DNA of 64,000 bases from Candidatus Doudnabacteria bacterium (lineage in GTDB: Bacteria; Patescibacteriota; Doudnabacteria; UBA920), in NCBI GenBank assembly GCA_020850635.1, contig JADZEH010000024.1, forward strand, positions 8,617 to 72,616, in the 5' to 3' direction. Below the pieces are notes generated by a model that did not search any database, was not told where the DNA came from, and worked only from the letters and a program-made list of their open reading frames with translations. A program made the position numbers and the translations under genes. This document shows positions 18,761 through 55,442 of this stretch, piece after piece; the stretch's first letter is position 1; every line of letters starts with the position of its first letter.

Positions 18761-19093
18761 TTATTTCGCTCGCTTGAACATCGCCCCAAGACGACGACGT
18801 AAACTTATTTTCTTATCTTTTTCTTTCGTCAGTTGTTCGCGAATTTTTGGAAGGACTAAATCTAAAGCGGCATAAAAATTATCAGAAGCAGCCTCGGCAT
18901 AATGACCATGTGGCTGGATACGAACTTCTACTCGCTGCACTTCTCCGCTTTGATGATGCTTATCAATCTCCAACTCTACGTGTACGGTCTCGTCTGGTTT
19001 TAAAAACTTCTCTAAAACAGAAAGTTTGTTTTCAATACCGGCACGTACAGAATCGGACACTGTAGTATTTGTCGCTTTTATATTGAGATTCAT
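18761..19093 (-). CDS. hpf: Ribosome hibernation promoting factor (HPF/RaiA/YfiA family)
   Basis: 110 aa. MNLNIKATNTTVSDSVRAGIENKL... is typical of the sigma-54 modulation / HPF fold. Confidence 0.85.
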   Translation of the reverse strand: MNLNIKATNTTVSDSVRAGIENKLSVLEKFLKPDETVHVELEIDKHHQSGEVQRVEVRIQPHGHYAEAASDNFYAALDLVLPKIREQLTKEKDKKISLRRRLGAMFKRAK

Positions 19094-19124
19094 AAGATCC
19101 TTTCACTTACTAATCTTACCTTAA

Positions 19125-20216
19125 TTATACCACGTTAAGCCTTCCTTCAAAACCAACAAACTCTGGTTCGTGCTCTAATTCAACCCCAGTTTTTGCTAGT
19201 ACCCCAGCTTTTACTTGATTATAGAGGGTGATTACGTCTTCTGCACTAGCTTTCCCTGTTTTATTCAAGATAATCGCTGGTTGAGCGGGATTAATTTGAG
19301 CTCCCCCAACCTCTAAACCCTTAAACCCACAAACATCAAGTAAAAATGCAGTAGGGGTTTTGTAGCCTTGAGGGACTTTAAGTCTATCTGCCATCGCTTC
19401 AAGGCGCTGAGCTTGTTCAGTTCCAAATAAATCTAGAACTTTCTTTTGCATGTCCGCAAACTCACTATCGCTTAATATTGGACCACGGAAAAATGAACCA
19501 GCATTACCGCGTTCGGGTGCATCTGGAAACGGAAACTTGGTATTTCTAATTTCAATAATCGCGCTTCTAATTTCGGCAAGGGTAATTGTTTGCGGATCAC
19601 GATCAGCAAACTTAATTTTCAAATCACCATAAGATAAATTTGGATTGGGTACTTTTGATAACACTAAGTTTGTATGTAATATAACGTAACGATTTTTTTC
19701 CGAGGTATTGAAGATACTTTTTCGATAACCAAACTCACACTCATCGCGAGAAATAATTTTTGTGTCATGTGTTTGTCGATCGAATACCAACACTGATTCT
19801 ACAACCTGACTGGCCTCTTGTCCGTAAGCCCCCACATTTTGAACTGTAAGTGCGCCAGTGTTGCCTGGGATGTGTGATAAGTTCTCAATGCCCCATAGCC
19901 CATGCTCAACGGCAAACGCCACCACAGAGTCCCAGTTTTGACCTGAGCCAATCGTCAGTCGAACCTGAGAATCTGAAATATCTTCTTGCTCAATACCTTC
20001 GTTAACCAGCTTTATAACTAGGCCATCAAAGCCTTTATCCGAAACGAGAACATTGCTACCACCACCCATAATCAAAACTTGGGCAGATTTTTGTTCTGCA
20101 AATTTTAAAGCCTCGTTAAGCTCATCGGTGGTTTTAGCTTCACAAAAATATTTAGCTAGACCGCCGATGTGAAAAGTGGTGTGCTCTGAAAGTAAAATGT
20201 TTTCTTGAATATCCAT
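19125..20216 (-). CDS. murB: UDP-N-acetylenolpyruvoylglucosamine reductase MurB
   Basis: LSEHTTFHIGG FAD-binding N-terminus. Sits in a mur gene context. Confidence 0.85.
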   Translation of the reverse strand: MDIQENILLSEHTTFHIGGLAKYFCEAKTTDELNEALKFAEQKSAQVLIMGGGSNVLVSDKGFDGLVIKLVNEGIEQEDISDSQVRLTIGSGQNWDSVVAFAVEHGLWGIENLSHIPGNTGALTVQNVGAYGQEASQVVESVLVFDRQTHDTKIISRDECEFGYRKSIFNTSEKNRYVILHTNLVLSKVPNPNLSYGDLKIKFADRDPQTITLAEIRSAIIEIRNTKFPFPDAPERGNAGSFFRGPILSDSEFADMQKKVLDLFGTEQAQRLEAMADRLKVPQGYKTPTAFLLDVCGFKGLEVGGAQINPAQPAIILNKTGKASAEDVITLYNQVKAGVLAKTGVELEHEPEFVGFEGRLNVV

Positions 20217-20228
20217 AAGTTAAATTGT

Positions 20229-20257
20229 TTGACTAACCTCTATTTTTATGATTAAAT
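20229..20257 (+). promoter_or_regulatory. Sigma70-like promoter TTGACT-17-TTAAAT for the high-GC ORF
   Basis: -35 at 20229-20234, -10 at 20252-20257. GAGGAGG Shine-Dalgarno at 20279-20288. Confidence 0.4.
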
Positions 20258-20294
20258 GTATAGCCGAGAGAACGACGAAGAGGAGGAGTTACCC

Positions 20295-20669
20295 ATGCCT
20301 GACGAAGCCCCGGACTTGTCGGTGATCAAGATGCCAACTGACGACGAGAAGAAGTACTTCCTGTACAGTAAGCTCAACACATACATGCGTCGCGGCGAGG
20401 AACAAGGTCTTGCTTACAGGGCTCCTGAGGCCATGAGCAGGGACGAGATCGACACTCACTACAAGACCTACATTCTCACTCACTTGATTGTGAATGATGA
20501 GATCCTCCCAGACCAAATGTCGGCCGCACTTGCAGGCCCTTATGGCTTGGAAACCGATATATTCTACAATGCCTGGATAGTCATCGATGACTATGCCACA
20601 ACAGGAGGTGAAAAGGCTCGCGCCGGCAAATCCTGGAATCTCCCGCCTGAGGAGGACCCCCCGAACTGA
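20295..20669 (+). CDS. Hypothetical acidic protein, compositionally foreign (~52% GC)
   Basis: ATG at 20295 is preceded by aagaggaggag (the ORF track starts earlier at 20256). 124 aa, MPDEAPDLSVIKMPTDDEKKYFLYSKL... Terminator immediately downstream. Antisense to murB/murC. Confidence 0.55.
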   Translation: MPDEAPDLSVIKMPTDDEKKYFLYSKLNTYMRRGEEQGLAYRAPEAMSRDEIDTHYKTYILTHLIVNDEILPDQMSAALAGPYGLETDIFYNAWIVIDDYATTGGEKARAGKSWNLPPEEDPPN

Positions 20670-20684
20670 TCGGGGGCTTTTTTA
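20657..20684 (+). terminator. Strong intrinsic terminator (cccccga/tcggggg stem, T6) for the high-GC ORF
   Basis: 7-bp GC stem with the TGA stop in the loop, followed by TTTTTT. The T-run overlaps the murC stop codon on the opposite strand. Confidence 0.7.
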
Positions 20685-22106
20685 TATACTCTCTATAAAC
20701 TCGTAAGCCAACTTATTGAAACTTCCCACAGCCATAACAATAATTACATCATCGTTTATTGCCTCGTCTTTCAAAATTTCTAATGCCGCGTCTTTGTTCG
20801 CCACCAACCTGACGTCCTTGTGATGCTTACTGATCGCTTTAACTACGTCCTGCCCGCTGATTGTGGCATCTTTAACATTTTCACGAGCCGGATAAATTTC
20901 AGCGATTAAAACATGATCAGCGGCATCAAAACTTTTTACCAGCTCTGGTAACGTTGCCGATGTACGACTAAAGGTATGTGGTTCAAAGATTGCCCAAATT
21001 CGTTTCTCACTGTATCGAGAACGAGCCGCTTCCAAAGTTTCGCGAACCGCTGTTGGATGATGAGCGTAATCGTCAATAACGGTAATTCCGTTTCGTTTGC
21101 CGAGTAATTCAAAGCGACGCTTAACTCCTTTGTATTCACTCAACGGGGCACTAAGTAACTCATGCGAAAAGCCCAAAGCTCTCACGGTTGCAATACAAGC
21201 TAAAGCGTTGTAAACGTTAATTTTCCCTGGCAAAGAGATTGCGTAACTTTCCAGCTTTTCGTTAGCTTCGTTTTTCTTGTCTCGAACTTGAAAAGTAGTT
21301 TGTTCTGGGCCAAAGAAAATATCACTCGCGGTATACTCGCTCATTTCCTTTAAGCTGTAACCGAAACTAGCTACGTTTGTTTCGAAAGCCAATTTGGCTG
21401 CGTTCACATCATCAGCGTTGTATATAAGTAGGCCATCGGCTGGCATGGCGTGAATCAGTAATTTAAATTCTTCCAAGATTTCTTCAATGCTACCGAACAT
21501 ATCGGGATGATCGAATTCAATGTTGTTAAGAATCACGATGTCTGGTCGATAATATTGGAACTTTGGAGTAGGGTCATCAAAAGTAGCTTTGTATTCATCA
21601 CCTTCGAATACGAAATAATGACCATCACCTTTGTGGAAATTGGTTTCAGAACCTTGCAAAACAGCCCCAACCACAAACGAACTATCATCCAGTTCCCTTA
21701 AAACACTCCCCAATAAACCAGCTGTGGTAGATTTGCCATGAGTTCCTGCCACCACAATGCGTAATTTGTCTTTAGAGAGCTCATATAACAATTCAGAAAA
21801 CGACACATAAGGTAAGTCGTTATCAACAATGTATTTGACTTCAGGATTATTTAAATCTTCCCCAGCACTAAGCACATACAGATCAGCTGGATTATTAATA
21901 ATATTTTGAGCGTCGTAACCAGTAAAATAGTCGATGCTGTATTTATCTAAAACATCTTTTGCAGGCGCGTAGACAGTTTTAGCATCACTGCCAAGGACCG
22001 TATAACCTTCGTCGCGGGCTATTCCTGCCGTGGCAGACATCGCAATACCGCCAATCCCAACAAAATAGATATTATGGATTTCACTTAGATTCATGAGTTT
22101 GTTCAT
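20682..22106 (-). CDS. murC: UDP-N-acetylmuramate--L-alanine ligase MurC
   Basis: NIYFVGIGGIAMSATAGI N-terminus, GTHGKSTT P-loop, Mur ligase C-domain. Probable start at the MNLSEIHN methionine. Confidence 0.9.
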   Translation of the reverse strand: MNKLMNLSEIHNIYFVGIGGIAMSATAGIARDEGYTVLGSDAKTVYAPAKDVLDKYSIDYFTGYDAQNIINNPADLYVLSAGEDLNNPEVKYIVDNDLPYVSFSELLYELSKDKLRIVVAGTHGKSTTAGLLGSVLRELDDSSFVVGAVLQGSETNFHKGDGHYFVFEGDEYKATFDDPTPKFQYYRPDIVILNNIEFDHPDMFGSIEEILEEFKLLIHAMPADGLLIYNADDVNAAKLAFETNVASFGYSLKEMSEYTASDIFFGPEQTTFQVRDKKNEANEKLESYAISLPGKINVYNALACIATVRALGFSHELLSAPLSEYKGVKRRFELLGKRNGITVIDDYAHHPTAVRETLEAARSRYSEKRIWAIFEPHTFSRTSATLPELVKSFDAADHVLIAEIYPARENVKDATISGQDVVKAISKHHKDVRLVANKDAALEILKDEAINDDVIIVMAVGSFNKLAYEFIESI

Positions 22107-23067
22107 AGTTAGTAATCAATTTTCTAATTTGTGGAATATTTTCTAAAGCTGCTTTGCGACCTTCTTCATAATTTTGCTGCATCTGTTCAACCGCATACGA
22201 CTGTCGTCCACGTTTCATCTCATGACGAATAAGCAAGTCTGAATCTTTGAAAACGTCGTACTTATCTTTTTTATTCTGTGCAGCAATAGCCAAATCTAAA
22301 GATTTTCCAAGGACACTAAATAACCCTTGTCGGTTAGAAAAATCGGACTCATTTAAATTAACATCAGCAAAAAAATCAAAGATATCCATTTGCTCAAATG
22401 ACTTAGCCATAGTACTCCACAACCGTTCGGCATAAGAAACTAGGAAAACTTTTTTCAAAGTTTTTAAAGCTCGGTGAATCCTGACTTGATATGGCAAAAA
22501 AATATGTTCCACCGCTCTAATGTTAACCCCAATAACAATATCCATACCAGCTTGCCTGACTACATCACACGGTACAATGCTCAACAAACCACCATCGACT
22601 AAAGTCCGATTCCCCCAAACAACTGGTTCAAAAACTCCAGGAACTGTGCAAGAAATACGAGCAGCGTGAGCAATATCACCCATCGATAACACGACTTGCT
22701 CACCCTTATCTATATCAACTGTAACAAAACCCATTAAAGGTCGAACTTCTTCAAATTTTTTATCTCCAGTAAATTTGCGTATTTGCTCTTCAACTTTATC
22801 AAGGTTATAAATTCCACCCTTCGTGCCATTGCGATTTAATAAACTAAATACCACGTCTTTATTTAGTTTAAATAAGTATTGTTTAAGCTCAGGAAGAGTA
22901 CCACACGCGTAACTCGCTGCTATAATAGTTCCACCCGAGCAAGCAGCAATATAATCAATGGGTATGTTGTGTTCATTTAGAACTTCTAAAAATCCAATAT
23001 GAAAACCGGAACGCGATGAAGCGCCACTTAAAGCCAGGCCAATTTTAGGAATTCGTTTCTCGTTCAT
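22081..23067 (-). CDS. Patatin-like phospholipase family protein
   Basis: GLALSGASSRSGFHIGFL oxyanion block, ACSGGT nucleophile region, LVDGGLLS (DGG). Confidence 0.75.
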   Translation of the reverse strand: MNEKRIPKIGLALSGASSRSGFHIGFLEVLNEHNIPIDYIAACSGGTIIAASYACGTLPELKQYLFKLNKDVVFSLLNRNGTKGGIYNLDKVEEQIRKFTGDKKFEEVRPLMGFVTVDIDKGEQVVLSMGDIAHAARISCTVPGVFEPVVWGNRTLVDGGLLSIVPCDVVRQAGMDIVIGVNIRAVEHIFLPYQVRIHRALKTLKKVFLVSYAERLWSTMAKSFEQMDIFDFFADVNLNESDFSNRQGLFSVLGKSLDLAIAAQNKKDKYDVFKDSDLLIRHEMKRGRQSYAVEQMQQNYEEGRKAALENIPQIRKLITNYEQTHESK

Positions 23068-41320: not shown

Positions 41321-41349
41321 TTGACATCAGCAGAAATTTATAGCATAAT
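41321..41349 (+). promoter_or_regulatory. Consensus-like sigma70 promoter TTGACA-17-CATAAT for the high-GC ORF
   Basis: -35 at 41321-41326, -10 at 41344-41349. AAGGAGGAG Shine-Dalgarno at 41386-41394. Confidence 0.5.
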
Positions 41350-41398
41350 ACTCAATCGACAGACACCAAATTCTGACGAGCTTCTAAGGAGGAGACCG

Positions 41399-41932
41399 AT
41401 GACTTTTGACCGCAGAGATAACGAACCATATCTCAAGCTCAACGACCAACTATACCAACGAACGTTAAGCGGAAGTATGGCAACAAACCATGCCCTGTTT
41501 CACTCCATCGTCATAGAGGCGATGAAGATGTTCGCAGACGTGCCCGGATGGGAGGAAAGAACTGGAGCGTACTGGGCAATTGCGGGCATCTACACCGAAG
41601 AGTCTTACGCTGCGGGCTACGCGGGTAACAACGGTTACTCAGCAGGTGAACAATTTCGATTGCGATGCAAAGAAAAGCTGGCACGTTTGGCGTCGCACCG
41701 ACATCACTTGAGCAGTGCCGAAAGCCGGAACCCTGATCGGCTCCAATTCGGAGGAGCGATCCGTACCAACTGGTACATGCTCTCGATGTCGGGACTACCC
41801 GAAGACGGCGACGAAATCTGCGTGCTCAAATTCGCTGTGGAGCGCTCCTGGCTCACCGACGACCAGGCAAAGCAGATCGCCGAGATCAGCGACAACTGGC
41901 TTTGGAAAGAGTTCTCTGAATTGCTCTTCTAG
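41399..41932 (+). CDS. Hypothetical protein, compositionally foreign (~53% GC), inserted within a tRNA cluster
   Basis: ATG at 41399 after a strong SD. The ORF-track start at 41321 is a TTG that coincides with the -35 box. 177 aa, MTFDRRDNEPYLKLNDQLYQRTLSGS... No recognised domain. Confidence 0.55.
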   Translation: MTFDRRDNEPYLKLNDQLYQRTLSGSMATNHALFHSIVIEAMKMFADVPGWEERTGAYWAIAGIYTEESYAAGYAGNNGYSAGEQFRLRCKEKLARLASHRHHLSSAESRNPDRLQFGGAIRTNWYMLSMSGLPEDGDEICVLKFAVERSWLTDDQAKQIAEISDNWLWKEFSELLF

Positions 41933-41962
41933 CAGACTGCGCCACAACGGCGCGACGTTCCA

Positions 41963-42001
41963 CCCTGCCCCTCCATCTCGGAGCGGCAGGGGATTTTTTT
42001 A
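41963..42001 (+). terminator. Intrinsic terminator (ccctgcc...ggcaggg, T7) for the high-GC ORF
   Basis: GC-rich stem with a nested ctcc/ggag inner stem, followed by seven Ts. Confidence 0.7.
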
Positions 42002-46341: not shown

Positions 46342-47150
46342 CCATACAGGAGACCTTAAGTCTTTATTCAGATGCTGAATCTGATTTATTACTCTCTTTC
46401 GTACTAAAAAAGTCGAGAGATTTTTTGTATATCCATCCAGAAAAAAAGCTTACAACAAAACAACTAAAAGCTTTTAAGTCTCTAGTTGCACGACGCAAAA
46501 AAGGTGAGCCTGTAGCTTACCTATTGAGATATAAAGATTTCTTTGGATTGAAATTCAAAGTTACCAAAGATACGTTAGTTCCTCGTCCTGAAACCGAATG
46601 GGTTGTGGATCATATCCTCAATCAAAAACTTTCAAACAACACTTCAATTCTCGATTTAGGAACCGGCTCTGGATGTATCGCGATCAGCATAAAAAAGAAC
46701 ACTCCTAAACTTTCTGTAACTGCAAGCGATGTTTCGAAAAAAGCTTTACTTGTAGCAAAACAAAACGCCCGATCCCACAAAACTAAAATTAACTTTGTTC
46801 ACTCAAACTTACTTAGTAACTTATCAAACAAACATTTTGATATTATTATCGCTAACCTTCCTTACGGCTGGAATGTTTGGAAAAATAATAGCTCTATCGA
46901 AGCAAAAAGTTTAAAGTTTGAACCACAATTAGCACTATTTACCAAAGAAAACGGCTTATACCTCTATCGCCTTTTACTGCAACAAGTTTCAAAACTCAAA
47001 AAACAACCTAGCGTAATCTATTTAGAATTCGATCCACGACAAAAAACTAAACTCGCTAAACTTATAAAAACAATACTACCTAAAGCCAAAACTATTTTTC
47101 ATAAAGATTTAGCTGGGTTGTGGCGATACGTAGAAATAAAACGAGGCTAG
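46338..47150 (+). CDS. prmC: Release factor glutamine methyltransferase PrmC (HemK)
   Basis: SAM-binding LDLGTGSGCIAISI and IANLPYGW (NPPY-type) motif. Confidence 0.85.
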   Translation: MTIQETLSLYSDAESDLLLSFVLKKSRDFLYIHPEKKLTTKQLKAFKSLVARRKKGEPVAYLLRYKDFFGLKFKVTKDTLVPRPETEWVVDHILNQKLSNNTSILDLGTGSGCIAISIKKNTPKLSVTASDVSKKALLVAKQNARSHKTKINFVHSNLLSNLSNKHFDIIIANLPYGWNVWKNNSSIEAKSLKFEPQLALFTKENGLYLYRLLLQQVSKLKKQPSVIYLEFDPRQKTKLAKLIKTILPKAKTIFHKDLAGLWRYVEIKRG

Positions 47151-47602
47151 CCAAAATGCGCTAACCTCATGCTCTGACCCGGGTAACACTCGTCAAGTCC
47201 CCGAAGCATGAGCCCAGTCCTTGGATGAGCGGGGTCCATTGAGATTCTATGACGGACCACAGCCGCCTTTTTCTCGTCCTGTCCAAGATAGTGATACATC
47301 ACGTTCGATACCTGAATGATCATCTTAACTATTTCTCGCTTCCCTTCTTGGGGAAAGCGCGAGATAACAGCCTTAATGCTTCGCTCGCTCGGTATCATCT
47401 TCAACGCAAAAGCTGCATAGGTAATCGGCGCGGTCCTCCCTTCGCTCCCGATCACATAGTACGCTTTGTTCCGCCCTCGCAAGGTTATCTGATATTCGAA
47501 CCTCACGGACACGCCAGACCTGACAAACTCCGAAAAACCATGCAGGTCTCCAGACTCCTTCTGACACAGCTGAGAAAACACCGAGACCACCCTTCTTGCC
47601 AT
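47147..47602 (-). CDS. Hypothetical protein, compositionally foreign (~52% GC)
   Basis: ATG at 47600-47602 (minus) preceded by GGTAGGAGGT SD. The ORF track extends to 47635. 151 aa, MARRVVSVFSQLCQKESGDL... Putative promoter on minus at 47630-47658 (TTGACA, then TATGCT-like -10). Its stop overlaps the convergent prmC stop within GCTAGC. Confidence 0.5.
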   Translation of the reverse strand: MARRVVSVFSQLCQKESGDLHGFSEFVRSGVSVRFEYQITLRGRNKAYYVIGSEGRTAPITYAAFALKMIPSERSIKAVISRFPQEGKREIVKMIIQVSNVMYHYLGQDEKKAAVVRHRISMDPAHPRTGLMLRGLDECYPGQSMRLAHFG

Positions 47603-47670
47603 CACACACCTCCTACCCATTGATGACATTAGCATACTCGAACATCAAAGTTTGTCAAAATCTACACAAC

Positions 47671-51001: not shown

Positions 51002-54000
51002 ATGACTTTTACCCACCTCCATTGCCATACGCACTACTCCCTCCTCGACGGATTATCTAAAATTGGTCCGTTAGTTGATGAAGCCAAAAAGCTGGGAATG
51101 ACTAGCTTGGCTATGACCGATCATGGAGTGATGTATGGAGCTATTGAGTTTTACAACACCTGTCTTGAAGCTGGCATCAAACCAATTATCGGGATGGAAA
51201 GTTACGTCGCCCCTCGAACTAGATTTGATAAAGAAGGAAAAACCGACGCCGACTATTTTCACATCACCTTACTAGCCAAAAACGATACTGGCTACAAAAA
51301 TTTAATCCAACTTACTACCAAAGCCCATACTGAAGGGTTTTACTATAAACCCCGAGTCGACAAAGAACTACTAACACTTCATGCTGAAGGGTTAATCGCG
51401 CTGTCGGGATGCCAACGTGGGGAAGTTGCTCGAGCTGTAATGGAAAGTGAAACCAAAGGCAAAGAAATACTTGAGCTCTATATTAAGATTTTTGGGACAA
51501 ACAACTTCTTTATAGAAATTCAACGAAACGCTGAAGATCCCAACGACCAAAAACGCGAAACCGAACTCAATCGTCGCCTAATGGCTCTTGCAAAAGAGTA
51601 CAAGCTCTCACTGGTAGCCACAGGTGACTGTCATTATATTCACCCTGAAGACAAAGAAGCTCAAGATGTTTTGGTATGTATTGGCACTGGTCGAACTGTG
51701 CAAGACGAAAATCGCTTAGACATGCGCAGTCATGGTTTATGGCTGAGATCGAGCGTGGAAATGGCCGAACTGTTTAAAGATGTTCCGGAAGCAATAACCA
51801 ACACCCAAAAAGTCGCGGACCTCTGTCAGCTCGATATTCCGATTAATCAAAGATATTTCGCCAACGTTAAACTTCCGTCGAACACTAATGCAGAAGAGTT
51901 TCTCACCGTTGAAGTCGAAACTCAAGTTCATAAAATGTACGCTGACAAAAACGGCGTACTCCCCGATGAAATTCGTGAACGTGTTGATTACGAATTAGGA
52001 ATTATCAAACCCAAAGGTTTTGCCCCATATTTTATTATGGTGGCAGATATTGTAAAAGGGGCACACTCAATTGGTGCGATTACTAACACTCGTGGTTCAG
52101 CTGCGGGTAGTATTGTCGGACATGTTTTAGGGATCAGCGCAATTGACCCAATCTATTATCAGTTGCCTTTTGAACGTTTTTTAACGGCCTCTCGTCCAAC
52201 CCCACCTGATGTTGATTTGGACATTTCCGATACACGTCGTGATGAAACTATTGAATGGATTACGGAACAGTATGGGCGTGATAAAGTCGCGCAGATTATT
52301 ACTTTTGGAACAATGATGGCGCGCGCCGCCGTCCGCGATGTCGGTCGGGCTCTAGCCGTCCCTTATGGTAAATGTGATCGCATCGCCAAGATGATCCCTA
52401 TTGGTAAACAAGGTTTTCAAATGACGCTGAGCAAGGCTTTAGAAATGAACCCTGAGCTCAAGCAGGTCTACAACACCGATGCCGAAACCAAAAAAGTTGT
52501 CGACGTCGCCCGAAAACTAGAAGGTGGCGCACGCCACGCTTCCATTCACGCCGCGGCTCTAGCCATCACCCCAACTCCCCTCACCGACTATACCCCACTT
52601 CAAAAAGAACCTGATGGCGAACGCATGATTACGCAATACGACATGTACTCTCTTGATGTTGGTGCCGACAGTCACGCTATTGGTGTAATCAAAATGGACT
52701 TACTCGGAATACGCAACTTGAGTATTTTGGAAGAAGCCTTGAAGTTAGTGAAAGACAGGCACGGTGTTACGATTGATATTAACAAGCTTCCTCAACCCGA
52801 TCCCAAAACCATGAAACTCTTGTCCGATGGTCACACCTTTGGCGTGTTTCAACTTGGCTCATCGGGTATGACTCGTTATCTCAAAGAGCTAAAGCCACAA
52901 AACATTTTTGATATCATGGCCATGATCGCTCTGTATCGTCCGGGGCCAATGGGAATTATTCCAGAATATATTTCGCGCAGGCATAATCCACGAGCCATTC
53001 AATTTTTTGATCCGCGGATGAAAGATTACCTCGAACGCTCTTTGGGACTATTGGTCTACCAAGAAGATGTTTTACTCACAGCAATTAACATCGCTGGCTA
53101 CTCATGGGAAGAAGCGGACAAACTCCGCAAAGCTATGGGTAAAAAAATCCCTGAAGAAATGACTAAGCAAAAAGTGAAGTTCACCGAAGGCTGTGTTAAC
53201 GGTGGGATGCGCCCCGATCGTGCTGAGGAGTTGTTTAAACTCATCGAACCGTTTGCCGCGTATGGGTTTGGTAAAGCCCATGCCGCCAGTTACGCCCAAG
53301 TCTCCTATCAAACCGCCTATATGAAAGCCAATTATCCCGTGGAGTTCATGGCTGCGGTTATGACCGCCGAAAGCGGTAACGAAGACAAGATCTACGCTGC
53401 AGTAGAAGAATGTAAAGCTCTGGGTATAAAAGTTTTACCGCCAGATGTGAACGAATCACAAGGCGACTTTACCGTGGTTGATGATCATACAATTCGTTTT
53501 GGCATGAACGCCATCAAAAATTTAGGAACAGACGTTGTCGCTAAGATTATCGAATGCAACGAGGGCGGTAAAAAACATTTCGAATCAATAGAAGACTTTT
53601 TAGTGCGCTGTCATGCCAAAAACTTTAACAAGCGTTCATGGGAAGCCTTAGTTAAAGCTGGGGCGTTAGACAAGTTCGACGAACGAGGTAAACTCCTCGC
53701 CAACACCGATTACGTTTTAGATTTTGTGCGTGACCATTTTAAATCTGAGAACTCTGGACAAAATTCCCTGTTTGGCGCATCGCTGAAAATTGGCAAACTT
53801 CGCTTACAAGATGCACCACCGGCTACTCAAGAAGAGATGTTGTTATGGGAAAAGGAACATCTTAATTTTTATATCTCCGCGCACCCACTCGATAACTACA
53901 AATCTGTACTCAAAACTTTCCCCACCATCCGCGAAGTTCAAGCGCTGGAAGGAGAACAACTTGTGACTATCGGTGGAATTATTTCCAAAATGAAACGAAC

Positions 54001-54466
54001 TTTAACCAAGAAGAATGAGCCGATGGCGTTCTTCACTTTAGAAGACTCGACTGGATCACTCGAAGTACTAGTCTTTCCTAAAGTTATGCCAATCGCTTTA
54101 CCGTTCTTAGAACTGGATAAAATTGTTCAAGTTACGGGACGACTGTCAGACAAAGACGGCGAAGCCAAAGTTATCGCCAATGAACTCCAACAAATGCCCA
54201 ACGATGAACTTTATTTCATGGCATTATCTGAAATGGAAAAAAATAAGCAAGTTGTGATTCACATGATCAACGCCAATAACCCTGAAGTCTTAAACAAAAT
54301 CAAAGATGTGATTGTGATGTATCCTGGTAATGCCCAAGTTTATCTTAGTGTAGGAAACGGCAACAACTCCAAGAAGATCAAGACAAAATCACAGGTTCGC
54401 ATTAGCCTCGACCTTATCACTGCGCTCAAAGAAATTCCAGAAATAACCATGGTTAGCCAAAACTAG
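51002..54466 (+). CDS. dnaE: DNA polymerase III alpha subunit (DnaE-type)
   Basis: 1154 aa. PHP domain HLHCHTHYSLLDG at the N-terminus, polymerase core, OB fold. Confidence 0.97.
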   Translation: MTFTHLHCHTHYSLLDGLSKIGPLVDEAKKLGMTSLAMTDHGVMYGAIEFYNTCLEAGIKPIIGMESYVAPRTRFDKEGKTDADYFHITLLAKNDTGYKNLIQLTTKAHTEGFYYKPRVDKELLTLHAEGLIALSGCQRGEVARAVMESETKGKEILELYIKIFGTNNFFIEIQRNAEDPNDQKRETELNRRLMALAKEYKLSLVATGDCHYIHPEDKEAQDVLVCIGTGRTVQDENRLDMRSHGLWLRSSVEMAELFKDVPEAITNTQKVADLCQLDIPINQRYFANVKLPSNTNAEEFLTVEVETQVHKMYADKNGVLPDEIRERVDYELGIIKPKGFAPYFIMVADIVKGAHSIGAITNTRGSAAGSIVGHVLGISAIDPIYYQLPFERFLTASRPTPPDVDLDISDTRRDETIEWITEQYGRDKVAQIITFGTMMARAAVRDVGRALAVPYGKCDRIAKMIPIGKQGFQMTLSKALEMNPELKQVYNTDAETKKVVDVARKLEGGARHASIHAAALAITPTPLTDYTPLQKEPDGERMITQYDMYSLDVGADSHAIGVIKMDLLGIRNLSILEEALKLVKDRHGVTIDINKLPQPDPKTMKLLSDGHTFGVFQLGSSGMTRYLKELKPQNIFDIMAMIALYRPGPMGIIPEYISRRHNPRAIQFFDPRMKDYLERSLGLLVYQEDVLLTAINIAGYSWEEADKLRKAMGKKIPEEMTKQKVKFTEGCVNGGMRPDRAEELFKLIEPFAAYGFGKAHAASYAQVSYQTAYMKANYPVEFMAAVMTAESGNEDKIYAAVEECKALGIKVLPPDVNESQGDFTVVDDHTIRFGMNAIKNLGTDVVAKIIECNEGGKKHFESIEDFLVRCHAKNFNKRSWEALVKAGALDKFDERGKLLANTDYVLDFVRDHFKSENSGQNSLFGASLKIGKLRLQDAPPATQEEMLLWEKEHLNFYISAHPLDNYKSVLKTFPTIREVQALEGEQLVTIGGIISKMKRTLTKKNEPMAFFTLEDSTGSLEVLVFPKVMPIALPFLELDKIVQVTGRLSDKDGEAKVIANELQQMPNDELYFMALSEMEKNKQVVIHMINANNPEVLNKIKDVIVMYPGNAQVYLSVGNGNNSKKIKTKSQVRISLDLITALKEIPEITMVSQN

Positions 54467-54487
54467 AGCTTGTGGTATACTGAAGGC

Positions 54488-54742
54488 AATTTGCACTAAA
54501 GAGAATTGGCTTTCCCCTGGTCCAGCTAGTTACCCTCGCCTTTAGGAACATGTTTGAGACAATCGGCCCCACATACTGGAGAGTAGTTACTCCAGACATT
54601 CCCCACCTAAGAGCCAATTCTCACAATCGGTCAGTAGTGAATACCAGTCCAACAAGGAGGACTATCAAGCGCCTAGGCGCTTACCCCAAGTAGCACACCC
54701 AGTCACAGCGTTCCCGCGCAATGGTGTTGCTTGGGTTTTTTT
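54488..54742 (+). ncRNA. Candidate structured small RNA (~255 nt) with extended -10 promoter and intrinsic terminator; family unknown
   Basis: TGgTATACT extended -10 at 54473-54481. No ORF of 60 aa or more on this strand. Long-range stem GAGAAUUGGCU (54502-54512) pairs with AGCCAAUUCUC (54610-54620). Internal hairpins (cuggag/cuccag; GCGCCUAGGCGC). Terminal stem cccaag/cttggg followed by T7. Confidence 0.35.
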
Positions 54743-54744
54743 AT

Positions 54745-54773
54745 TTGACAAAAAGGGGTAATAGTCCTAGAAT
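54745..54773 (+). promoter_or_regulatory. Consensus-like sigma70 promoter TTGACA-17-TAGAAT
   Basis: -35 at 54745-54750, -10 at 54768-54773. GGAGAAAG Shine-Dalgarno before the ATG at 54855. Confidence 0.45.
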
Positions 54774-54854
54774 GAGCAAAGTTTCAACTAGAAGCACGGC
54801 TCATACAGCGTGTTTATCACCCAACGCCCAGCCGAAGCGAATTGGAGAAAGCTC

Positions 54855-55346
54855 ATGAAGAGTCTCCTTTCGATGCTGTCCGTTGCAATCGTCTTCGCTT
54901 TCGTGTCACCTCTGGTGGCCGACCTCGAGGCGAAAGCGAGTTCGACCAACAAATCGCCGCCGAGCATTACCATCACGGGTCAGCGCATCCATTACGGATC
55001 TGACGATGTGAACACGATGCCGATGGCCGACCAAACGCCGCTCGAGACGATCACCACGTCCGCCAGCATGGACAAGGTTTTCGCTCCACCGGCGATCAAC
55101 AGTTCGAAGATGACCGGGTCCACCGACGGGAAATCGGTGAACGATCCGGCCGCCACGCTCGCGGGAACCGACCCGTACATTGTTCTGTACATCAACGTCG
55201 CCATTCAACGGACGATGATACCGGCAATGGCAGGATGCAACGAGGCGATTTTGCGCGCACCCCGCAAGTCGGCACGTTCGGGTCCCGAGATCCAACGAGC
55301 CTGGCGCCCGTTCGCCGGCCTCGATCTCAACTCCTCGAAGCCCTGA
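54855..55346 (+). CDS. Small secreted hypothetical protein, high GC (~58%)
   Basis: ATG at 54855 (the ORF track opens at 54810). Signal peptide MKSLLSMLSVAIVFAFVSPLVADLEAKA. 163 aa. The antisense ORFs here are high-GC artefacts. Confidence 0.5.
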   Translation: MKSLLSMLSVAIVFAFVSPLVADLEAKASSTNKSPPSITITGQRIHYGSDDVNTMPMADQTPLETITTSASMDKVFAPPAINSSKMTGSTDGKSVNDPAATLAGTDPYIVLYINVAIQRTMIPAMAGCNEAILRAPRKSARSGPEIQRAWRPFAGLDLNSSKP

Positions 55347-55393
55347 AACTTGTTCGCAAAAGCGAACACTCACGACCTCCTCACGGAGGGACC

Positions 55394-55433
55394 CCGCTCT
55401 CGACATCTACGGATGTCGGAGCGGTCTTTTTTT
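55394..55433 (+). terminator. Intrinsic terminator (ccgctc-t-cgacatc / gatgtcggagcgg, T7)
   Basis: About 13-bp stem with one bulge and a tetraloop, followed by seven Ts. Confidence 0.65.
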
Positions 55434-55442
55434 ATTTAAAGA

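Follow-up and report, generated by a model that had tools for sequence, protein, structure and literature searches.

A moron-like single-gene islet, probably acquired horizontally, at the murC-murB junction of a group of Doudnabacteria

A self-contained gene unit was added at the murC-murB junction in one genus-level group of Doudnabacteria, which comprises the metagenome-assembled genome (MAG) studied here and two other metagenomic lineages. We analysed this cassette within a 64-kb stretch of DNA from the MAG, referred to below as the window. Taken as a whole, the cassette is probably a horizontally acquired, moron-like single-gene islet whose alleles were later exchanged. In kind, it is an ordinary horizontally acquired islet with an uncharacterised Patescibacteria protein. 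Its clean anatomy, the essential and coupled gene pair that it targets, its persistent third-position GC content (GC3) and its decoupled divergence go beyond what an ordinary islet would present.

The inserted segment (20217-20681, 465 bp) lies between the start codon of murB and the stop codon of murC, in a minus-strand cluster with the gene order murG, patatin-like gene, murC, murB, hpf, secA. The patatin-like gene, hpf, murB and murC were named by Pfam in the window, and murG and secA from the Pfam annotation of orthologous loci in relatives. A prior reading of this DNA from its sequence alone (the sequence-only reading) had placed an opposite-strand unit between murB and murC, and the Pfam assignments and the orientation of the ORF bear this out (Table 1). 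The cassette is monocistronic and runs against the co-oriented murC and murB. Its 124-aa gene (137 aa if read from an upstream ATG) is the sole sense-strand ORF of at least 50 aa in the 465 bp, and the product is identical to the NCBI hypothetical protein IT410_02700. No second copy of the cassette occurs in the 64-kb window, and its boundaries carry no terminal inverted or direct repeats, only short repeats at chance level. An assembly chimera was ruled out, as the identical architecture is found in independent assemblies from more than eight samples.

Table 1. Positions of the cassette features and of the flanking genes in the window
Feature	Position	Strand	Basis or detail
hpf	18761-19093	-	Pfam
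murB (UDP-N-acetylenolpyruvoylglucosamine reductase), downstream flank of the cassette	19125-20216	-	Pfam FAD_binding_4 and MurB_C
Sigma-70-type promoter (predicted)	20229-20257	+	sequence, motif count, conservation in three alleles
-35 element, TTGACT	20229-20234	+	
Spacer of 17 nt, holding the extended -10 TG	TG at 20249-20250	+	
-10 element, TTAAAT	20252-20257	+	
Shine-Dalgarno sequence, GAGGAGG	20280-20286	+	8 nt before ATG; conserved in all three alleles
CDS, 124 aa, acidic, mainly alpha-helical	20295-20669	+	ORF, selection, homologues, AlphaFold2 model
Intrinsic terminator (predicted)	20658-20683	+	stem 20658-20676, T6 20678-20683
murC (Mur ligase), upstream flank of the cassette	20682-22106	-	Pfam Mur_ligase, Mur_ligase_M and Mur_ligase_C

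That the segment is an addition follows from the same junction in relatives. A MurC scan of the GTDB species representatives yielded 38 loci, and tblastn found a homologue of the ORF in none of the 38. L016 (CAYOVR010000076.1; MurC 90% and MurB 85% identical) is the closest genome without the cassette, and its junction runs murC ...GGT TTG TAA TT ATG GAT ATC... murB, with a spacer of 2 nt. Gaps of ~0-20 nt separate murC from murB in relatives with MurC identities of 50-62% as well (L017, 18, 19, 23, 25, 28, 31, 40, 51), so that, L016 included, at least 10 Doudnabacteria-like relatives have such a gap. In L020, L022, L034 and L036 the gap holds other genes, which are co-directional and of normal composition. 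The tight junctions of the relatives indicate that a tight junction is ancestral and that the 465 bp are added DNA. The precise insertion into a mur spacer that had been proposed from the sequence is thereby borne out by the 2-nt spacer of L016 and by the ORF-free gaps of the other relatives.

Two orthologues of the 124-aa protein occupy the same junction in the same orientation. One (P0002, 75% identity) is found on contigs L001-L005, from 4-5 samples, and the other (P0003, 69% identity) on contigs L006-L010 and eight similar contigs. The insertion is thus older than the window strain, or it has spread within one genus-level group. The sequence-only reading had held that an orthologue of similar composition at the same place across relatives would tell against an insertion; such orthologues do exist, but in two close lineages only and not beyond them, and this does not show an ancestral gene. 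A quartet of MurC+MurB placed L016 outside the window and L006 with 46% bootstrap (4 informative sites) and together with L006 with 54% (6 informative sites), and with this placement a single gain, a gain with a loss and a gain with a spread are not told apart. Contigs with an identical HPF protein were too short to reach the cassette.

The cassette appears to bring its own expression signals. The motif class of its predicted promoter, TTGACW-N17-TWWAAT, is found three times in the window against 0.26 expected. Both promoter hexamers and the TG are invariant in the three alleles, with 4-6 differences in the 17-nt spacer, and they are unchanged despite a divergence of 19.5% in the promoter/UTR region. 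A generic promoter scan omitted this promoter because TTAAAT lacks an A at position 2. The TTGACT-17-TTAAAT promoter and GAGGAGG Shine-Dalgarno sequence predicted in the sequence-only reading are thus in place and conserved in the three alleles. A native neighbouring gene carries TTGACA-17-TAGATT plus AAGGAGG, so the promoter and Shine-Dalgarno sequence of the cassette are in the style of the host and would not in themselves look foreign.

At the other end of the unit, the stop codon of the ORF sits within the stem of the predicted terminator, which has 7 bp (6 of them GC) and a 5-nt loop. The fold of -16.1 kcal/mol (z = -2.6), together with the T6, is in line with the strong terminator that had been suggested. 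The stop codon of murC is the complement of 20682-20684, and the overlap of this codon with the T-run, as earlier described, is real. Read on the minus strand, the hairpin comes after an A-run and is followed by GUCCUCCU, with no U-tract, and efficient termination of murC transcripts is therefore not expected; the earlier view of a unidirectional hairpin is consistent with this and with the fold. Within the insert, the generic promoter scan listed nothing promoter-like on the minus strand. The predicted promoter of the cassette is close to consensus, and its -35 element is 12 nt from the murB start codon.

With these signals in mind, one may propose how the locus is transcribed. Transcription of the cassette would start at its own extended -10 promoter and proceed in the direction of murC, leaving murB behind, and the unidirectional terminator at the murC stop would end this transcription, so that no antisense RNA would enter murC. 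Through the cassette, murB would have lost its tight coupling to murC. Because of this loss, and since the insert has no recognisable murB promoter, murB would depend on murC transcripts that read through the antisense strand of the cassette, head-on with cassette transcription.

The ORF encodes a genuine protein under purifying selection. The three alleles, 18-20% apart in nucleotides, align over 375 nt (124 codons) without an indel, and their pairwise dN/dS is 0.25-0.34. The alternative 137-aa reading starts at an ATG at 20256, inside the -10 element; in L002 this ATG falls outside the reading frame, which leaves the 124-aa start as the correct one. The product has a pI of 4.45 and a net charge of -11. 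When 1.84 billion representatives were searched exhaustively with phmmer, 23 proteins came back at E<=1e-3, of which 22 were non-orthologous representatives with E values from 3.8e-16 to 1e-3, the best being 35% identical. By sequence, then, the protein is a member of a small uncharacterised Patescibacteria family of proteins of roughly 110-130 aa, and the protein search proposed in the sequence-only reading has thus found homologues, in a family that has no Pfam or PDB match. Most of the proteins found measure 106-161 aa; duplicated and C-terminally extended forms occur among them. The family consensus (alignment A1) runs I-x-L-P-x-D ... K-L-x-E-Y-x-x-R ... Y-x-A-P-E in the N-terminal part, D-T-x-Y-K-I-x-V-L-E-x-L-L-x-x-G-x-V-x-T in the middle and N-A-C-x-V-I-x-D-Y-x-x-T-G-G-x4-G-G-T-G-L in the C-terminal part. 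The cassette protein aligns to the family over its full length and has the invariant K26, Y30, R33, V96, Y100, G104, G105 and G111. Invariant and nearly invariant family columns are retained in the three alleles, except for the terminal GGTG[LF], which is replaced in all three by AGKSW and a proline-rich acidic tail.

AlphaFold2 with the family alignment gave a model with a pLDDT of 81.8 and a pTM of 0.76, in which a short N-terminal strand is followed by helices at 17-36 (the long one), 49-67, 72-79 and 87-103; small strands lie between the helices, and the tail is disordered. A Foldseek search of this model against PDB and BFVD gave no match. No recognised match for the protein or its family was found in Pfam, NCBIfam, PHROGs or PADLOC, and no genuine one in PDB by sequence; an antibody Fab in the PDB sequence search (E = 0.0056) had no passing stretch and was rejected as spurious. 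The only matches in Pfam and NCBIfam were sub-threshold ones to the winged-helix domains PheRS_DBD1, TFIIE-alpha and TFE, and they fall on the V-L-E-x-L-L...G-x-V-x-T...L-S-x-E-L stretch. A winged-helix-like protein is a lead only. Most of the family is acidic to neutral, and this favours a protein over DNA as the partner. We may therefore picture the product as a cytoplasmic, acidic, helical and possibly winged-helix-like protein, more likely to bind a protein than DNA. Elsewhere, family members are stand-alone genes in unrelated contexts: in L011 between a sigma-70-like gene and topA, in L012 near murA/murB, and in L013-L015 among small hypotheticals. No conserved neighbour of the distant family members emerged from the gene contexts of L011-L015.

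The cassette and its flanks have diverged to different degrees. Between the window and L001/L002, murC differs at 1.2-1.8% of nucleotides (dS 0.07-0.17) and murB at 4-12%, in mosaic blocks. The ORF differs at 18.1% of nucleotides (dS 0.46, dN 0.154) and 25% of amino acids and the promoter/UTR at 19.5%, before identity returns to 100% at the terminator (no difference in 15 positions between the window and L001-L005). In the comparison of the window with L006, the flanks have a dS of 0.9-2.5, which is saturated, and the ORF a dS of only 0.66. L001-L005 share one and the same cassette sequence but are 8-10% apart in murB and in the 5' part of murC, a mosaic that points to frequent homologous recombination in the populations. 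By these comparisons the divergence of the cassette is decoupled from that of its murB and murC flanks. We suggest that cassette alleles move between lineages by homologous recombination via the conserved murB/murC flanks; exchange of this kind would leave the divergence of the cassette unrelated to that of the flanks. Within the ORF, pN/pS is 0.1-0.2 in codons 21-60 but reaches ~0.8-1 in codons 61-100, and the fast-evolving codons may reflect an interaction under changing selection.

Could selection be the main cause of this divergence? The cassette may be a hypervariable arms-race locus, such as an immunity, anti-phage or host-interaction factor of an episymbiont, that is under diversifying or frequency-dependent selection. 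This view would accommodate 18% nucleotide and 25% amino acid divergence between strains whose murC genes are 1-2% apart, the contrast in pN/pS between the two blocks of codons, and a single allele without any difference in 4-5 samples on differing flank backgrounds; a second GC-rich island of the window (described below) shows the same local hyper-divergence. However, the promoter/UTR is as diverged as the ORF, so that the excess is not confined to amino-acid substitutions, dN/dS stays below 1 overall, PADLOC, PHROG and Pfam gave no match, and the argument draws on three alleles. We regard an arms race as a serious though doubtful alternative to the exchange of alleles of an acquired islet.

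The composition of the cassette is atypical. The sequence-only reading had described an acidic 124-aa gene of ~52% GC, and this was accurate: GC is 0.528 and GC3 0.648 in the ORF, against a GC of 0.41 and a GC3 of 0.32-0.38 in murB and murC. The GC statistics that it had asked for set the ORF apart, at a GC3 3.5 sd above the other window ORFs taken as genes (mean ~0.37), and comparable GC3 values occur in the window only in ORFs of three other islands. All three alleles share this property (GC3 0.648, 0.664 and 0.688), with murB, murC, hpf and the patatin gene at 0.28-0.38 in all genomes compared. In the family members of L011-L013, GC3 is equal to or below that of their neighbours, so the high GC belongs to the Doudnabacteria cassette copy and not to the family. 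Codon adaptation for high expression was rejected as a cause, as L25 and HPF have a GC3 of only 0.31-0.32. Polarised by majority rule among the three alleles, third-position changes comprise 23 from S to W and 14 from W to S, which imply an equilibrium GC3 of ~0.53 against 0.36 in the flanks (binomial P = 0.037, 37 changes). It is suggestive, not decisive, of a substitution spectrum in the ORF that differs from that of the flanks. Under vertical inheritance since the split of the window and L006 (flank dS >=1), GC3 is expected to have decayed well below 0.65, and no decay is seen. In these three alleles, the persistent GC3 would thus reflect either recent lateral spread, or upkeep by selection or biased gene conversion.

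The second of these options leads to the view that the gene is native, its GC-rich synonymous sites being kept by selection or, at a recombination hot spot, by GC-biased gene conversion. Selection might act on mRNA stability, on a sense/antisense duplex with murC-murB read-through, or through a special translation regime, and the elevated GC would in that case follow from the behaviour of the locus and would not mark its origin. A GC3 of 0.65-0.69 in three alleles despite saturated synonymous sites in the flanks of the window and L006 fits this view, as do the equilibrium GC3 of the ORF, the recombination mosaics at the locus and the host's own style of promoter and Shine-Dalgarno sequence. 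The island at 41399-41932 and its GC-rich homologue in L055 behave alike. We nevertheless consider a native gene unlikely. L016 and all more distant relatives lack the locus, so that it was added at some point, other family members are not GC-enriched in their genomes, and P = 0.037 from 37 parsimony-polarised changes is weak. A GC3 excess of 0.3, moreover, to our knowledge far exceeds the effects of biased conversion reported in bacteria.

It is very improbable that the ORF is ancestral to the group and that the murC-murB junction of the relatives arose by deletion. Three lineages share the identical junction, and the 54/46 bootstrap would allow for a loss in L016, but the at least ten Doudnabacteria-like genomes with ~0-20 nt gaps are increasingly distant, a deletion would need to recreate exactly the 2-nt spacer of the nearest relative, and the composition of the ORF is atypical. 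A non-coding segment (a GC-rich insert, either an sRNA or a structured spacer, with an ORF by chance) can be dismissed almost entirely. In its favour, the antisense frame that aligns with the codons has no stop in the window allele, as expected for any GC3-rich stretch, but it is stop-broken in the other two alleles, and full-length homologues in other Patescibacteria (E down to 3.8e-16), dN/dS of 0.25-0.34 without indels, the conserved Shine-Dalgarno sequence and start codon, the confident AlphaFold2 model and the absence of any Rfam match at E<=1 all speak against it. A conserved overlapping antisense gene was rejected as well, the 75-aa frame that is open in the window allele having a stop in both others.

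Against these alternatives, we favour the acquisition of the cassette as an islet. The donor would have been GC-richer and probably another Patescibacterium; family members elsewhere match the composition of their own genomes. Entry would have taken place near the base of the one genus-level Doudnabacteria group. To be set against this account, no donor was found. The cassette bears no signature of mobility in the form of terminal inverted repeats or target site duplications (TIR/TSD), an integrase, a transposase, a phage link or a tRNA target. Searches with a protein pattern and a 29-base degenerate DNA pattern gave no cassette match in IMG/VR, and searches with a protein and a DNA pattern gave no further alleles in JGI metagenomes. 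Nothing pertinent was found in the literature on GC-rich islands in Doudnabacteria.

The window holds at least three further GC3-rich (0.60-0.75) orphan units. All three have a TTGACA -35 element and a Shine-Dalgarno sequence, and two of them a recognisable -10 element and a strong terminator too. One of them, island 2 (41399-41932), lies between tRNA genes on the opposite strand. It shows the same local hyper-divergence as the cassette in a near-identical strain (L054), and a distant homologue is GC-rich in another low-GC genome (L055: GC3 0.76, flanks ~0.4). Sister strain(s) carry a GC-rich opposite-strand formyltransferase gene between hpf and secA, which the window lacks.

One may speculate, and we hold this improbable, that such units form a new class of Patescibacteria loci: small, self-promoted, GC3-rich orphans in tight junctions, whose GC is maintained and whose alleles circulate independently of the flanks. 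Four units in the 64-kb window and a fifth, the strain-specific formyltransferase gene near hpf, argue for this idea, as do the hyper-divergence of island 2 and its GC-rich L055 homologue. According to this speculation, the units would often run against the local gene direction and would provide a pool of plug-in, fast-evolving accessory genes, possibly tied to an episymbiotic lifestyle.

The tightly coupled murC-murB pair is an unusual place for an acquired opposing gene to survive. In these reduced genomes the expression of murB potentially depends on, or is antagonised by, a foreign promoter, and the locus thus lends itself naturally to tests of transcriptional interference within an essential pathway. 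The accessory genes of Candidate Phyla Radiation bacteria are almost entirely uncharacterised, and among these organisms the cassette is a compact case of horizontal gene gain that can be dated. If the persistence of GC3 and the flank-independent history hold in more genomes, they would bear both on whether GC-biased conversion or selection on synonymous sites acts in such tiny genomes and on how strain-level variable genes are exchanged.

Several known systems invite comparison with the cassette. It resembles an integron cassette as a compact single-ORF unit at a fixed junction, with alternative alleles. Integron cassettes, however, are normally promoterless, whereas this one has a promoter of its own and no attC-like imperfect palindrome beyond the 19-nt terminator stem. 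No integrase was found in its neighbourhood among the scanned ORFs (mur, hpf and patatin, with secA by the annotation of a relative). A passenger of an IS, MITE or transposon was rejected, as there are no boundary repeats, no other sense-strand ORF of at least 50 aa in the 465 bp and no further copy in the window. The target of a diversity-generating retroelement (DGR) was rejected too: the 64-kb window holds no template repeat, and the differences are spread over promoter and ORF. With the Patescibacteria family of alignment A1, the cassette shares the full-length alignment, the invariant residues, the size and the stand-alone gene; it differs in the AGKSW that stands for GGTG[LF] and in being GC-rich for its genome.

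Closer parallels are found in genomic islets, or transferred ORFans, and in phage morons. Like the former, the cassette is short, lineage-restricted and compositionally atypical in an otherwise syntenic region. Unlike them, it does not lie beside a variable region, an IS element or a tRNA but splits a tightly coupled essential pair, neither an integrase nor IS remnants accompany it, and its GC3 is not ameliorated though the synonymous sites of the flanks are saturated. Morons were defined for the phages HK97 and HK022 as extra DNA between adjacent genes, with their own promoter and terminator and a deviant GC content (PMC3594210). The cassette, too, is extra DNA between genes that are adjacent in relatives (465 bp against ~0-20 nt), a single ORF with what appear to be its own promoter and factor-independent terminator, and deviant in both GC and GC3. 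In contrast to morons, it lies in a chromosomal mur cluster with no PHROG hit and no match to viral contigs, it points against the surrounding operon, and its GC excess and divergence persist across lineages. Since it does not reside in a phage, we call the cassette moron-like rather than a moron.

At least three further GC-rich units occur in the window, and sister strains bear a GC-rich gene between hpf and secA. The second unit, flanked by tRNA-Thr and tRNA-Tyr genes that are both on the opposite strand, carries a promoter-like TTGACA-17-CATAAT followed by AAGGAGG, an orphan ORF (41399-41932, 177 aa, GC3 0.635) and, 3' of it, a strong terminator. Between the window and the near-identical strain L054 the flanks of this ORF are 98-100% identical, whereas the ORF itself is only 68-95% identical. 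A homologue with 34% identity is encoded in L055, another low-GC genome, with GC3 of 0.76 versus about 0.4. The third ORF is preceded by TTGACA, a -35-like hexamer, and by the SD AGGAGG, both located immediately past the L25 terminator. It overlaps the end of the convergent prmC, and its product has no match in Pfam. In the fourth unit, a promoter-like TTGACA-17-TAGAAT and, at the other end, the terminator enclose an ORF (54855-55346, 163 aa, GC3 0.75) with a signal-peptide-like N-terminal segment, also without a Pfam match. The GC-rich stretch near this unit lies directly 3' of an ORF (51002-54466, 1154 aa) that appears to encode DNA polymerase III alpha. It ends in a hairpin and a T-run and may therefore be a small RNA, with no match in Rfam at the gathering threshold. 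In the sister strains, the gene between hpf and secA matches Formyl_trans_N (Pfam, E 3e-11), has a GC of 0.57 and a GC3 of 0.67, lies on the opposite strand and has a terminator. It is missing at this position in the window, and the HPF protein is identical between the window and the strains that bear it.

GC-rich features and genes near murC
Feature	Location	Strand	Description
Second GC-rich unit	window 41321-42000	+	promoter-like motif, SD, orphan ORF, strong terminator
Third GC-rich orphan ORF	window 47147-47650	-	151 aa counted from 47602, GC3 0.605
GC-rich stretch	window 54480-54740	+	~260 nt, no convincing ORF
Fourth GC-rich unit	window 54746-55435	+	promoter-like motif, ORF, strong terminator
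GC-rich formyltransferase gene	L002 3-620	+	between hpf and secA
	L058 1379-2074	-	
	L060		
Patatin-like phospholipase gene	window 22081-23067	-	between murG and murC
murC-murB gap gene	L020 5634-5807		57 aa
murC-murB gap gene	L022 5467-5748		93 aa, membrane-like
murC-murB gap gene	L034 5471-7402		643 aa
murC-murB gap genes	L036 5524-6771		pair, 162 aa + 178 aa

Upstream of murC, the patatin-like gene extends 26 nt past the murC start into murC and is kept in its place in all three cassette-bearing lineages. L001 and L002, two contigs bearing the 75%-identical cassette orthologue, form a sharp mosaic in murB and 5' murC (window equivalents 19100-20100 and 21700-22160), where blocks of 0% divergence adjoin blocks of 8-10%; this pattern indicates that lineages in this CPR population frequently recombine homologously. 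Four Doudnabacteria-like relatives without a cassette ORF homologue have other genes in the murC-murB gap, all co-directional and of normal GC, from which it follows that this junction took in insertions more than once.
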